Positions 143-63,979 of a stretch of DNA of 64,000 nt are shown piece after piece. Under the pieces are notes generated by a model, which worked only from the letters and a program-made list of their open reading frames with translations, was not told where the DNA came from and made no database searches. A program made the translations under genes and the position numbers. Numbering within the stretch: the first letter of the stretch is position 1; the number at the start of each line of letters is the position of its first letter. The stretch comes from Amoebophrya sp. A120 (taxonomy: Eukaryota; Protista; Dinoflagellata), in NCBI GenBank assembly GCA_905178155.1, contig CAJINV010000001.1, positions 605,643 through 669,642 of the forward strand. Direction: 5' to 3'.

Positions 143-1915
143 ATGAAAAAAATGGGGCGCCGCGCGATGGACAAGACGCGCAGCAAAAAAGCTGCGTGCA
201 ATCCACCTTCCGGAAAAAAAAGACCTCCGGCTGCGAAGATGAAGCAGACCGCCCCAACTAAACAAGTCGCGAAAGCACAATGCGCTCCCAAAACCAGAAC
301 TAGCGAGCAAACAAAACCCGGCGCGGCCGCAAAAGTCGTTTCCGACGATCGGTTCGTGCGTGCGATGAAGGAGATTCCCAAGGGGGAAGTTTGGTCCTTT
401 CAGGAGTTGGCCGTGGCCGCCGAGCGCCAGGGACAGGGTGGCATGATGCGGGCGAGCAGCGTCGCGCACAGTATTGTGTCCACCGCGCGGAATATTCCTT
501 GGTGGCGGGTCGTGTACAAGCCCAAGACGGGGAAGGCCCTGCGCGGGTACTTGCAGAAGGGGAGCAGCCGCGCCACCGTCCAGGCGCAGCTGTTGCAGGC
601 GGAGAAGGTGGATGTCAATAAAGAGTGGGTGGAGAAGCCGTTGGCCCCGGACGACCAGCTGACGCTGCGGGCCAAGGACTTGAAGGCACTGAAAGGCAGA
701 AGTAGCTCTATCACTACTTTATCCGGTAGTTCAAGAAGTAAATCTTCCGCGTTTTCTTCCCTGTTCAACGATTGGGAAATGCGCGTGGACAAAATTGCCA
801 CGACCATCGCGGAAAAACTCGGACGCGAAGGGATTTTTGCGACGACGAAAAGCAGTGTCAAAGCGGGAGCTCCTGCGCCGCAGGGTAGTAGTACACATAG
901 GGCACTGTCTTCCACCAGCGCAGTATCATCTTCTTCCTCTTCGGACTGGGAGCCCATTCGGGTGGGAAATGTTTTCAGCGCAGAGGAAGTCGGTGCCATT
1001 CTCGATTGGGCCGCCGAGGATGTTTATCACCACCGAACCGTGCGCCTCGAGAAGCACAACTTTGGCAAGGGCGTTTACCACTACTTGGCGGAGTCCGCAT
1101 TTGTCAAAGACGCGAAACACAACTACGTAGGCAGCTCCTTGAGCCTCTTCCGCGAGCGTTTGTTTGAGACCCTGCTGCCCTTCGCAGCGAGGCTGTCGAG
1201 TGGTTCTAGCACCGAACTGAAGCAGCTCGCGGGCAATTCTAGTACTTGTGCGGGGATGAAAAAACAACACGCAGGCACAACAAGCGCTTCGTCTACTACG
1301 GCTCTATCCCCCTTGAAGAAATTCCACCGGCTTTGCGAAAAAAAGGGGCAGGCGCGGCCGAGCTCGCTGATTTTGTACTACCGGGCGGGGGGCGTCAACT
1401 TCGCGCACCGAGACCTTTTATCAAGTGCAAAAATGTCTGGGTCTGGAAGAAAGGAAGGCTTGTCATGCTTGTCTGGCCTGACCCATGGTGCTTGTAATGC
1501 ATGACCCAGCATCACAGATTTTTGGAAAGCTTCCTGATGCCATTTCCGCATGACAAATGCCCTCCTCGCGTAGCACAAATGTGGCTCCTCTTGCAGGTCA
1601 TGCAATACAGATTTTTTTAGAGTTCAAAGTTAGCATCAGAAGTTCCAACTTTCCAGACCCAGACATTTTTGCATTTGATACCTTTTCGGCAGCATTGCGT
1701 TTCCGTTCCAGGTGTTGGCGCTGCTCTCCAGTCCGAAGGACGATTTCGAGGGGGGCCAGTTCTTCACCAAAACTGCCAAGGGGGTGTGCACCACCCACGA
1801 ACTGCAGATGGGGGATGTGCTGGTCTTCGACCCGATTAAGGTCACGCACGGCATGACCAAAATCACAAAGGGGCGGCGGGCAGTCTTCGGCTTTGTGTTT
1901 CACTTGGCGAAGTAA
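143..1915 (+). CDS. Fusion of an alkyltransferase-like (ATL/MGMT-type) DNA-binding domain and a DUF2086-type 2OG-Fe(II) oxygenase; 2 exons split by introner 1419-1680
   Basis: N-terminal IPKGEVWSFQELA...IPWWRVV (ATL-type PWxRV). C-terminal RLEKHNFGKGVYHY, RPSSLILYY, and the spliced junction HRDLFGSIAFPFQVLALLSSPKDDFEGGQF...THGMTKITKGRRAVFGFVFH, matching the DUF2086 HxD...H...R pattern. Confidence 0.8.
1419..1680. mobile_element. Introner, family A (TAT....TGCAAAAATGTCTGGGTCTGGAA TIR)
   Basis: TIRs; TSD CCTTT/CCTTT; removal restores HRDLFG. Confidence 0.9.
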
Positions 1916-2769
1916 GCAGTGGGGGGACTCGATGGGGTTTCGAAACGGCAAAGGTTTAGGAAAAATACGAGCGCAGACTGCTTTTCAGTTCGCCTGATCC
2001 CCGTAGTGCGGAAGGAAGAAAGACTCGATATGCCACTTGACGACGATATTTGCCAAGTACTGGCAATGGATTTTCATTTTGCTTCGGAGCAATCTCTATC
2101 CGAGTTTCAGTTTCATTTTTTTAAACCAACGCGAGGAGAATCCTTGTGCGCCCGTTTCGAAGAAGGCATTGTAATGTAAGGCACGCGGACGCGGTGATCA
2201 ACATGCTCGTGTTCATTTCTGCACGCTATTGTGTTTTTCCAAGCCGTTTCCGTTGTTTTCGTGGTCCGACGCTCGGCACGAGTTGCAATGATGATGACCG
2301 CACTGCTGATCTGAAATCTGTTGACGCGGAAACTGATTGTGGAGCAGACCAACGTCGATCCAGCTTTTCGTTTTCTTTTTCGGAAAAATTTTACAAACTG
2401 CGAATCATGCGGAGAAAATGCGACGTGACTCCGGAGGTCGAGCGGAAGACGAAATGCACTGAAATCCTTGCGAATAATCCCCCACTCGAAAATCGTTGTT
2501 CCGGCCGCATGGTCGGACCTAAGAACTGAGATCATAGTTTGCCACTGACAGTGCGCGATTTGATTTCCGTCCCGTCCAGGCCTTCTTCGCAATCGTACAT
2601 GTTACCGCTGTTCTATTGTGCAGTAGTTGCGATCTATCAAGCACAGTGTGTTACGACCTAAGGCGGCAATGAATACTCTAATCACGCGGCCCTAGCACGC
2701 GAAGCAGCAAAGCGCCGTTTGTGCTTTGTGAATTACTAATGTTGTAGCTACTTAAATCCCGAAGGTAAA

Positions 2770-61900: not shown

Positions 61901-63979
61901 CGGGGCCAGCCGGCGGACGCTGAACAGCCAGTCGCCCGAGAAAACGGCCACGGCGTCGGAGGCACCCAACTCCGAGGCGCCCAACGCCGAGCAGGCGGGC
62001 GAGGACGGTGCGGGCGAGGCGGCCAAGGAGCCGGAGGAGCCCCAGGGCACCTACGAGCGATTTTTGCTGCCCGGCTGTCCGGACGTGCTTTTCCTCTTTT
62101 CCGCGGACGAGGCGCACCGGAGTTTGGAGTGTGTATGAGAGTTGTGGACAACTACAACTCCCCCTCGTTCACGTTTCCATGATTTTTCATGCGAAATTTC
62201 GAGTGTAGCTGCTGCCTTGTGACACTATTGTGCACGACAAATTTCGCAATTTATAATTCCAAGCAGTACTTTGCTCGACGCATGAGGAAAAACTTGTCAT
62301 GCACAGGCTCCACCGGTGCTGGTGTTTGTATTGCTGTTCAACATTGCGACATACAAACGAGGGAGGAGGGGAAGTTGTGCACTCGGATAGCCCGAGCTGC
62401 TGAGCGAGGAACAGCTCGAGGCGGCGCAGCTCACCGCGAAGCTGGAAACGCGGGAAAGCAGCCTGCTCACCCGAATACAGGAGCAAAAGACGCAGCAAAC
62501 GGACGTGATAGACGCGGCCACGGAGGAAAACCCGTTGCCAGAGGACTTTGTGAAGCTCACCAGCGTGCGGGACTTTTTCCAGACGCACAACCGGCTCTGT
62601 GAGTGCGATTTGAACGCGTTCTACGAGGAGTTCGCGATTTGGGGCAAGGAGGAGATGGACTTCCGGAACCCGCCAGAGGAGGAGCCGGCGGAGTATCGTG
62701 AGGAAAAAACGCACCCGACCCAAATACTCAAAATGGAAGTTATTTGTGATGCTGATTCGTGACCACAAATCACCTCGGTTTTGCATATGGGTCGTCGGAA
62801 AGTGTGAGCTTATTTGGCGCATTCCGCCGCCAATCTGTGACGCGCTTCTGCTACATAGCGCAAAGCTGTCTCCCTTTTTGAACTGCTAGTGTTTTGGTTA
62901 CCCAGCCAGGGATAGAAAATGCATCATCCGAGCGCTTGCTGCAATACACCGCTTTGTCGTTTACAGAAGCTCAGCATACAGATTTTTTTTTTATGGAGTA
63001 GGGGCAGGTTTTTTCACTTTGACACGGAATCCCCCAACGCCAGTCCGACCGAGGAGGCGGCGCCGGAGCCCACGGAGGAGGAACTGGCGCTGCAGGAGAA
63101 GAAAAGGCTCGAGGCCGAGGCGCGCAAGGAGGACCGCCGCGTCAAGCGGGAGCACATGCTGTCGGTCGTCAAGGGGAACGCATTCGTCAAGTTTTTTCAG
63201 GCCGCATTCGAGAAGTCCACGGGGAAACCGTTCAAAAACTTCCTGCAACCCTTGGACACCACGCGAGTACCCGTGGAGACACCCGTGTCGGAGGGCGAGT
63301 ATAGATTGTTTTCAATTTTTTCCGAGTTCTGTAAAAGTAGAAAAAACACACTGACAAACACAAAGAAACGGCGCTTTGTCTGTTTTTTTTTCCGTCTCTC
63401 CACGACGAGCCATCGAATACGGAAAAGAGATAGAGAACTAGAAAAGTCCCTTCCCCCTTCAACACAGGCTGGTGGGCCTTTCCCTCGAGGAATCCCCTGA
63501 GGAGATTGCGGAACGAGAAGCGGCCGCTCGCGCTGCCGCCCAGAAAGCAGAGGCGGAGAGAAAGTACCAGGACAAGTTGAGGCGAGAAGAAGAAGCACAG
63601 CTGGAGGAAGTGTACTGTTTCATTTTCTATCATCTCTACTTTACGCAGTAGTAAAACGAAACGCACAAAATAAAAGAACTTCTCATCAACTGCGTAAGAA
63701 TAGATTCCCACAATGGTAGAAGTAGAAACCACGTCGGAAGTTGTAGTAGACACTGCATGATCTACTTCCCAGAGACGACGACGATGCTATTTGCTCCTTC
63801 TAAATACAAAAAACAGGTCGGAGCCGCTCCGCAAGTACCTGGCCGAGTACGTGACGCCCCACGTGACAGAAGCGCTGATAGAAATCTGCCGCGTCATGCC
63901 AGAGGACCCGGTGGACTACCTCGCAGAGTACCTCTTTTTCAAGTCCGAGGAGATGAAGGGACCGGATTCCGAGGACTGA
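58953..63979 (+). CDS. AK7: Adenylate kinase 7-like (flagellar) protein with a C-terminal Dpy-30 motif; multi-exon
   Basis: [99 protein letters not shown]. Confidence 0.88.
59017..59301. mobile_element. Introner, family B
   Basis: TIRs; TSD CGAGT/CGAGT. Confidence 0.9.
62134..62389. mobile_element. Introner, family E
   Basis: TIRs; degenerate TSD GTGTG/GCCCG; frame restored. Confidence 0.82.
62694..63024. mobile_element. Introner, family C
   Basis: TIRs; TSD CGGAG/CGGAA. Confidence 0.85.

Follow-up and report, generated by a model that had tools for sequence, protein, structure and literature searches.

Genes of the window and the elements that interrupt them

The window analysed here is a stretch of 64,000 nt from the dinoflagellate Amoebophrya sp. 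A120 (assembly GCA_905178155.1, contig CAJINV010000001.1, positions 605,643 to 669,642), in which protein genes are interrupted by 54 short inverted-repeat elements that begin with TAT, end with ATA and lie between the copies of a 5-nt direct repeat. Exons of the window are 99–100% identical to deposited proteins of Amoebophrya sp. A120 when used as single-exon queries, A25 orthologues being next best. Pfam searches with single exons confirm CDC20 WD40, Sec7, Voltage_CLC and Ribosomal_L27 domains. Three host genes are used throughout:

5270..9920, + strand, Sec7 gene (deposited protein P0299), with six elements and three GT-AG introns
33660..37957, + strand, CDC20 gene (deposited protein P0179), with nine elements and two GT-AG introns
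42951..52276, + strand, CLC channel gene (deposited protein P0151), with 17 elements and two other introns

All 54 element junctions fall in open frames of the + strand, and no element remnant was found outside such frames; 53 of the junctions lie in frames of at least 100 codons, which span at most 75% of the element-free DNA. An earlier reading made from the letters alone (the sequence-only reading) had counted nine elements in CDC20, 17 in CLC, six in a gene it labelled Sec7-PH and four in bL27, and these counts are reproduced. The Sec7 part of that label is supported by Pfam, whereas the PH part has no Pfam match.

Anatomy of the elements

A strict scan for a 5-bp repeat, TAT…ATA and the same repeat gives 36 matches. 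At least 12 of 25 end bases are complementary in 28 of these, compared with 0–2 such matches in each of 20 resampled sequences. Relaxed pairing yields 52 picks, of which five at a chance-level score (22–26) were dropped, and seven elements were added by eye, giving 54; five null sequences each contain four to eight pairs with a score of at least 22. The elements occupy 21% of the window and have a G+C content of 44%. Lengths range from 135 to 585 nt (median 260), with 53 of 54 within 135–331 nt. The sequence-only reading, which had listed 54 TAT…ATA copies with terminal inverted repeats (TIRs) and a 5-bp repeat, mostly 135–330 bp long and mostly lacking GT-AG ends, was therefore correct on all of these points: a GT-AG intron is possible at some cut position in the repeat in two elements and impossible in 52.

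The left end is TAT in 52 elements and TAC in two; the right end is ATA in 48 and another triplet in six. The end matrix of 27 strict elements has seven variable positions between TAT and a run of A. The direct repeat is perfect in 30 elements, has one mismatch in 18, two in three and three in two, and has no match in one (25023); thus the copies are at least 4/5 identical in 48 of 54. The repeat signal is present at length 5 only, with a mean identity of 0.87 compared with 0.22–0.32 at lengths 2–4 and 6–9. In the most diverged repeats (25023–25268, 54209–54398 and 62134–62389) the right copy, which would be intronic, is now rich in G and C (GGGG, GGGG and GCCC); this skew was looked for in the loci outside the window described below and is absent there. 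Mismatched repeats of the window also have a T-to-C skew, which was not borne out by the outside loci and was discarded.

The outside loci come from a scan of metagenome contigs that gave 160 stretches, of which 157 loci were examined; those listed share one assembly prefix. They carry the same element families at 69–97% identity, and none of the 157 overlaps the genes of the window. The 337 outside elements, found without use of the repeat, show a repeat of 5 bp only, perfect in 253, the identity at 6 bp being 0.23–0.27. Enough flank is present in 327, and 216 pass the orientation and repeat thresholds; the codon model used for orientation was trained on this window, including one partly out-of-frame stretch. 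Together with the 54 of the window these make 270 oriented elements. Lengths in the outside loci peak at about 150, 205, 260 and 320 nt, in steps of about 55–60 that are biased by the search pattern.

The elements of the window are listed below; strand is not assigned. Mismatch positions are those within the 5-nt repeat, and RNA-like contigs are those of runs X1 and X3 (see below).

1419..1680, oxygenase-like gene (PF09859); repeat CCTTT/CCTTT
5944..6206, Sec7 gene; repeat mismatch at position 2
6257..6535, Sec7 gene
6643..6902, Sec7 gene
8011..8299, Sec7 domain; repeat mismatch at position 5; Ile in the deposited protein and A25 orthologue, hence position 5 from the right copy
8491..8733, Sec7 domain
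9687..9857, Sec7 gene; right end AGA
23042..23292, unnamed gene, an open frame at 22472–26087 once elements are removed
23329..23590, unnamed gene 22472–26087
23714..23984, unnamed gene 22472–26087; repeat mismatch at position 5
24110..24329, unnamed gene 22472–26087
24373..24633, unnamed gene 22472–26087
24660..24921, unnamed gene 22472–26087; repeat mismatches at positions 1 and 4
25023..25268, unnamed gene 22472–26087; no recognisable repeat; added by eye
25444..25752, unnamed gene 22472–26087
26935..27149, unnamed gene, open frame 26490–27462
32341..32546, unnamed gene, open frame 31821–32877
33841..34099, CDC20
34140..34399, CDC20
34915..35235, CDC20
35283..35603, CDC20; right end ATT
36042..36368, CDC20; repeat mismatch at position 5; Asn in the deposited protein and in 5/5 homologues shown, hence position 5 from the right copy
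36430..36684, CDC20
36771..37014, CDC20; repeat mismatch at position 1; left copy retained
37176..37439, CDC20
37526..37692, CDC20
39147..39328, unnamed gene
41899..42178, short unnamed gene
44774..45001, CLC channel gene
45963..46223, CLC; RNA-like contig pieces end at the left repeat
46440..46728, CLC
46779..46927, CLC; repeat mismatch at position 1; left copy retained (conserved VVIMFELT)
47173..47382, CLC; RNA-like contig pieces begin at 47383
47752..48011, CLC; repeat mismatch at position 4; left copy through position 4 in RNA-like contigs and deposited protein
48286..48455, CLC
48528..48855, CLC
49377..49556, CLC; repeat mismatch at position 4; left copy through position 4 in RNA-like contigs
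49658..49948, CLC
50194..50463, CLC; repeat mismatch at position 3; left copy retained
50529..50710, CLC; left end TAC; repeat mismatch at position 5; right copy retained
50794..50937, CLC; GT…AG at the proposed register
50988..51232, CLC; left end TAC; added by eye
51275..51440, CLC; repeat mismatch at position 4; left copy retained (Leu, same in A25)
51475..51749, CLC; repeat mismatches at positions 3 and 5, hence a cut after position 3 or 4
51893..52161, CLC; repeat mismatch at position 5; right copy retained (Ser, same in A25)
53168..53302, shortest element (135 nt); 53162 is followed directly by 53303 in RNA-like contigs, which thus omit 140 nt (135 + 5)
54209..54398, flanking contig pieces 303 apart, the exon sum without element + 5 (498 if retained)
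56345..56929, bL27 gene; copy of a 149-nt family with about 435 nt of extra GC-rich and A-rich DNA (56415–56850), with the bL27 frame still restored
57097..57361, bL27 gene
57445..57719, bL27 gene
57784..58106, bL27 gene; GT…AG at the proposed register
59017..59301, near the start of a gene with a Dpy-30 motif at its end
62134..62389, Dpy-30-motif gene; repeat mismatches at positions 2–4; left copy through position 4 in RNA-like contigs
62694..63024, Dpy-30-motif gene; right end ACA

Earlier descriptions of the elements

Introner elements of A120 have been described by Farhat et al. (2021; PMC7789003). The ends are reported as TAT, seven variable bases and an A-run, with about 240 nt per element, 29,850 copies, hairpins, RNA sequencing support and non-canonical boundaries. 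Direct repeats of 3–5 nt flank them, a 5-bp example included, and the same repeat layout is found in 15% of canonical A120 introns. Splice sites are termed variable in the legend to Fig. 3, and that to Fig. S23 gives 1–5 nt. Nearly all spliceosomal proteins and the U2, U4, U5 and U6 small nuclear RNAs are reported in A120. Gozashti et al. (2025; PMC12130899, dataset file 8) list 58 A120 introner families, most classed as TIR DNA of superfamily ‘unknown’, with automated calls of the target-site duplication (TSD) that span 2–11 bp and a splice-site mode that varies by family; family 38 is annotated ‘Ginger; 5-bp TSD, TA/TA termini’, with integrase-like similarity. Two reviews (PMC11282704 and PMC11453091) restate the Amoebophrya findings.

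The window elements carry the published signature (an inverted repeat from TAT, seven variable bases and at least three A), and their 5-nt repeat falls within the published 3–5 nt. Since the exons are also those of A120, these are the published introner elements, in the same genome and of the same kind; the class is therefore not new, as the sequence-only reading had supposed. There are differences in detail. The splice position is called variable or unknown in PMC7789003, but here one register fits all informative cases, and in contrast to the TSD range and family-specific splice modes of PMC12130899, all of the groups defined here have 5 bp and one register. A fixed register, the constraint on the 5′ TA, a shared octamer and a sliding-boundary account of the variable motifs were not found in print, and are small additions. 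Among later studies of Amoebophrya splicing, as listed by literature searches, none appeared to deal with the octamer or the register.

Removal from RNA

The comparison of sequencing runs covers positions 44500–64000, and runs X1 and X3 are one sample, assigned to RNA by an automated guess and available as contigs rather than reads. In run X5 the contigs contain the elements and are identical to the window across them, and its repeat contigs have a very high summed depth. In X1 and X3, contigs connect 53162 to 53303 and so skip element 53168 plus 5 nt; this is the sole junction seen whole. Elsewhere, the 303 letters between two contig pieces equal the exon sum after subtraction of element 54209 plus 5 nt and three GT-AG introns, as against 498 with the element retained. 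Further X1/X3 pieces start or stop at the boundaries of elements 45963, 47173, 47752, 49377 and 62134. It should be added that the same RNA-like contigs skip ordinary GT-AG introns too.

Deposited transcript-based proteins agree with all 32 junctions in Sec7, CDC20 and CLC once the element and 5 nt are removed. Excision of element plus 5 nt at 45502–52276 (CLC, 16 elements) gives a frame of 1002 codons, compared with 131–354 codons when the element alone is excised. The proposal that the elements leave the RNA, and that removal of an element with one repeat restores the frame, is thus supported by the junction, the exon arithmetic and the deposited proteins. Symmetric removal (element plus 2 nt, with an extra codon) was considered and rejected, since contigs skip element plus 5 nt and the deposited proteins show no additional residue at any junction.

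The position of the cut

Identical repeats cannot place the cut, and mismatched repeats are therefore the informative cases. Such mismatches alter the protein at 11 of the 32 junctions in Sec7, CDC20 and CLC. All 11 are compatible with a cut after repeat position 4, whereas a cut after position 3 fits nine, after position 5 six, after position 1 or 2 six, and after 0 four. The A25 orthologue has the identical residue in all seven informative cases that can be aligned. At three elements whose copies differ at position 4 (47752, 49377 and 62134), the contig ends follow the left copy as far as that position (3/3). With the register taken as the intersection over a sample of 13 elements, the intron likely extends from 1 nt upstream of TAT to 4 nt downstream of ATA, i.e. 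N-TAT…ATA-NNNN, in one fixed register, as judged from sequence comparison.

How this relates to the published variety of splice motifs was approached by simulation. In the 270 oriented elements the boundary was moved within identical repeats toward GT…AG letters, by an assumed aligner rule. N-T then appears in 64–79% and A-N in 63–75%, and the top motifs are CT-AG, GT-AC, AT-AG and GT-CG, matching those published. The published variety is compatible with one register, yet is no evidence for it. All nine top A120 motifs (Table S4, PMC7789003) begin N-T and were considered as support for the register; they were set aside because sliding yields the same motifs whatever the true cut.

Boundary bases, hairpins and a shared octamer

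At this register, G is present at +1 in 93 of the 270 oriented elements and AG at the acceptor in 24, both at background, and selection toward G(+1) or AG was accordingly rejected. T at +2 is invariant. The sequence-only reading had the elements tolerate almost any boundary dinucleotide; this holds for +1, −2 and −1 but not for +2, which is always T. TA deviates at one of 270 5′ ends compared with 12 of 270 3′ ends (binomial p 0.003, post hoc and one of nine comparisons).

Folding against shuffled sequences gives z < −2 in 45 of 53 elements (median −5.9; the 585-nt element was excluded), and the first 15 bases are paired in 44 of the 53. Five ordinary introns, one of them cut 2 nt short at its start, have z from −0.8 to 2.6.

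By their interiors the elements form nine multi-copy groups (41 of 54 elements) and 13 singletons; both orientations are found in six of the nine groups. The claim of several families thus stands, but that of unrelated interiors does not, since 49 of 54 elements share the octamer TGT(C/G/A)ATGC. There are 127 octamers in 13.7 kb of elements compared with five in the 50.3 kb outside them, with peaks 32–33 and 40–45 nt from either element end. They are balanced between ends (138 vs 131 of 270) and strands (412 vs 378). A branch-point role was rejected on this equality, and the symmetry better suits a putative transposase DNA-binding site. None of the ordinary introns annotated in Sec7, CDC20 and CLC contains the octamer in the form GCATNACA. 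No mention of it was found in the excerpted text and supplement text of PMC7789003 (figures excluded), nor in a full-text literature search with the genus name.

Kinship with transposons

The elements have the characteristics of miniature inverted-repeat transposable elements (MITEs): they are short, have TIRs and a TSD, and have no coding capacity. A common mobiliser behind all families is what we infer. No transposase was found in ten long frames of the window, in agreement with the sequence-only reading, and the four longer copies in the outside loci have no stop-free frame above 150 codons and no transposase. An Rfam search of the window gave no match, nor did a search for the end pattern in viral and prokaryotic contigs.

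Two described transposon groups share features with the elements. IS3EU/GingerRoot has TA..TA termini, as here, but its TSD is usually 6 bp compared with 5 bp in the window (PMC10045372). TDD-4/5 of Ginger2/TDD make 5-bp TSDs, as here, but Ginger2 has TGTNR ends whereas the window elements end in TAT (PMC2836005). Both groups use integrase-type DDE enzymes, and by their ends and TSD the elements belong to neither.

Among comparable introns, the MITE introners of Micromonas and Aureococcus (PMC9860276, PMC11282704) bring TIRs and a TSD into exons, take one splice site from the TSD and leave no net change in the messenger RNA. They keep GT/GC-AG and need a suitable target, however, whereas the window elements show no G or AG target preference. 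Euglenid nonconventional introns and Fritillaria non-canonical introns (PMC11282704) have TIR-paired ends, TSD-like repeats, non-canonical junctions and a proposed MITE origin, as here. Their end motifs differ (CAG/CTG at +4..6 in euglenids, AG-AC/AG-AT in Fritillaria), and the lineages are unrelated to Amoebophrya.

How the elements may be inserted and removed

The explanation that we favour, and consider moderately probable, is that these introner elements are cut at a fixed register by a relaxed U2-type spliceosome guided by the hairpin, and are spread by an integrase-type DDE transposase. MITE-like copies would be placed in trans by cut-and-paste with a 5-bp staggered cut, with the common TAT-N7-AAAAA ends and the octamer TGT(C/G/A)ATGC near them as the binding sites of the enzyme. 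In the transcript the element ends would pair, and the stem would join the two cut sites and replace the reading of AG and branch point, with the relaxed spliceosome cutting at a set distance from it. In either orientation the element would provide U(+2)A(+3) of an ordinary donor, and the target would provide +1 and the acceptor. An NNAG|G target would give a textbook GT-AG intron and other targets non-canonical ones. This resembles the co-option of the TSD by other introners (PMC9860276) and suggests descent from that state. The GT-AG of U2-type introns is found at two of 54 elements, T at +2 being the only constant.

Perhaps the same elements, with the same register, are removed by a structure-guided endonuclease and a ligase that measure 1 nt (5′ side) and 4 nt (3′ side) from the hairpin base, in the manner suspected for euglenid nonconventional introns. 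We regard this as possible but clearly less probable. It would account for free bases at +1, −2 and −1, the strong end-to-end stems, the function of both orientations and the lack of a shared branch point, as well as for the U1 small nuclear RNA not detected in PMC7789003; in euglenids the TIR/TSD introns leave after conventional ones, and circular products are cited (PMC11282704). It would not explain why the invariant T and A sit exactly at donor +2 and +3 with only the 5′ copy tightly kept, nor why NNAG|G targets come out as GT-AG at this register (2/54). The repeat layout shared by 15% of canonical A120 introns and the nearly complete A120 spliceosome (PMC7789003) also speak for the spliceosome. 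A broader form of this idea, that A120 has a second, non-spliceosomal nuclear splicing route with a ruler from the hairpin base and no regard for GT-AG or branch points, and that the published motif variability is largely an aligner artefact, we hold to be doubtful. That there is no removal at the RNA level, the genes being dead or the elements being excised from DNA, could be argued from the guessed RNA status of X1 and X3. It is nevertheless very improbable: the same contigs skip ordinary GT-AG introns, X5 contigs carry the elements intact, conservation with A25 extends across the junctions of CDC20, Sec7 and CLC, and there is published RNA sequencing support (PMC7789003).

With respect to the cut, a variable position inside the 5-nt repeat, which would make the fixed register a small-sample coincidence or an aligner effect, agrees with the two figure legends and the diverse donor and acceptor tallies in print. 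We consider it improbable, as all seven elements that separate position 1 from 4 favour 3–5 over 1, position 5 is excluded by 5/5 testing elements, the left base is kept by 4/4 that test position 4, and sliding within identical repeats reproduces the published tallies. Spread via RNA, by reverse splicing into transcripts or DNA rather than by a DNA transposase, would be compatible with either removal route. It is favoured by the confinement of junctions to + strand open frames and by the preference of Farhat et al. for copy-paste in a genome where they found no transposase. Against it stand both orientations within families, the uniform 5-bp duplication, the strand-symmetric subterminal octamers and the A120 family on record with TA/TA termini, a 5-bp TSD and integrase-like similarity (PMC12130899), and it too appears improbable.

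Several observations weigh against the spliceosome-and-transposase explanation or its parts. No autonomous element with the same ends was found in the window or the 157 outside loci, and no transposase was found in A120 by the authors of PMC7789003, who favour a distinct removal mechanism and did not detect U1. Elements and ordinary introns were not found to share a branch point. No lone element fixes position 4, the tightest (51475) permitting 3 or 4, and for the largest family the tallies of PMC12130899 give A at intron −2 a share of 68%, as against the 29% expected from a fixed register, though the sliding simulation, with its assumed aligner rule, reproduces the higher share. Taken by themselves, the outside loci show no significant 5′/3′ asymmetry of TA (1 vs 6, p 0.125). 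As for removal, X1 and X3 are one sample of guessed RNA, seen as contigs with a single whole junction, the deposited proteins are aligner-based gene models, and raw-read run X7 matches only part of one repeat.

Other features of the window

The distribution of the elements is uneven. Three long intron-free frames (359, 438 and 1191 codons) at 12391–20127 are without elements and without a Pfam match, and lie beside genes with 9–17 elements; insertion is therefore strongly clustered by gene. At 119–1912, a single frame links a methylguanine-methyltransferase DNA-binding domain (PF01035) to the oxygenase domain (PF09859), with the first element interrupting. CDC20 and Sec7 exons alike match P0182, a database protein of 1899 residues. 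The two genes are 24 kb apart here, and P0182 may be a model in which genes that are neighbours in a relative have been fused. A CDC20 exon was also run through HMMER; the matches were generic WD-repeat proteins and were disregarded.

A 2.1-kb GC-rich stretch (28565–30669) lies between 47-nt inverted repeats that are 81% complementary, and contains internal palindromes and tandem units. Its ends are not TAT, its three long frames have no Pfam match, and it is likely another non-autonomous element. The first CLC intron (43386–44295, 910 nt) carries an insert rich in G and C that has a weak inverted repeat of 30 nt. An A-rich enlargement similar to that of bL27 element 56345..56929 is found in one outside locus (L065:3530-4025). 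Short interstitial TTTAGGG-type repeats are present in intergenic DNA at 11186 and 13781.

Implications

The phenomenon is published, and the interest lies in how A120 removes tens of thousands of such introns. With a single register, ‘any boundary’ becomes a precise rule, N-TAT…ATA-NNNN, which locates where lariats or circles should lie and lets A120 gene models be re-cut consistently. It predicts that mutations in U+2, A+3 or the stem should block removal. The octamer and the TA ends offer a handle for locating the missing transposase; with the register and the constraint on the 5′ TA, the octamer also makes the removal mechanism directly testable. If there were a second splicing route, any coding insertion of a TA-ended, integrase-type transposon with a 5-bp TSD would be silent. 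If removal is spliceosomal, the elements show how far a U2 spliceosome can abandon the reading of GT-AG; if it is not, they point to a new nuclear splicing chemistry.

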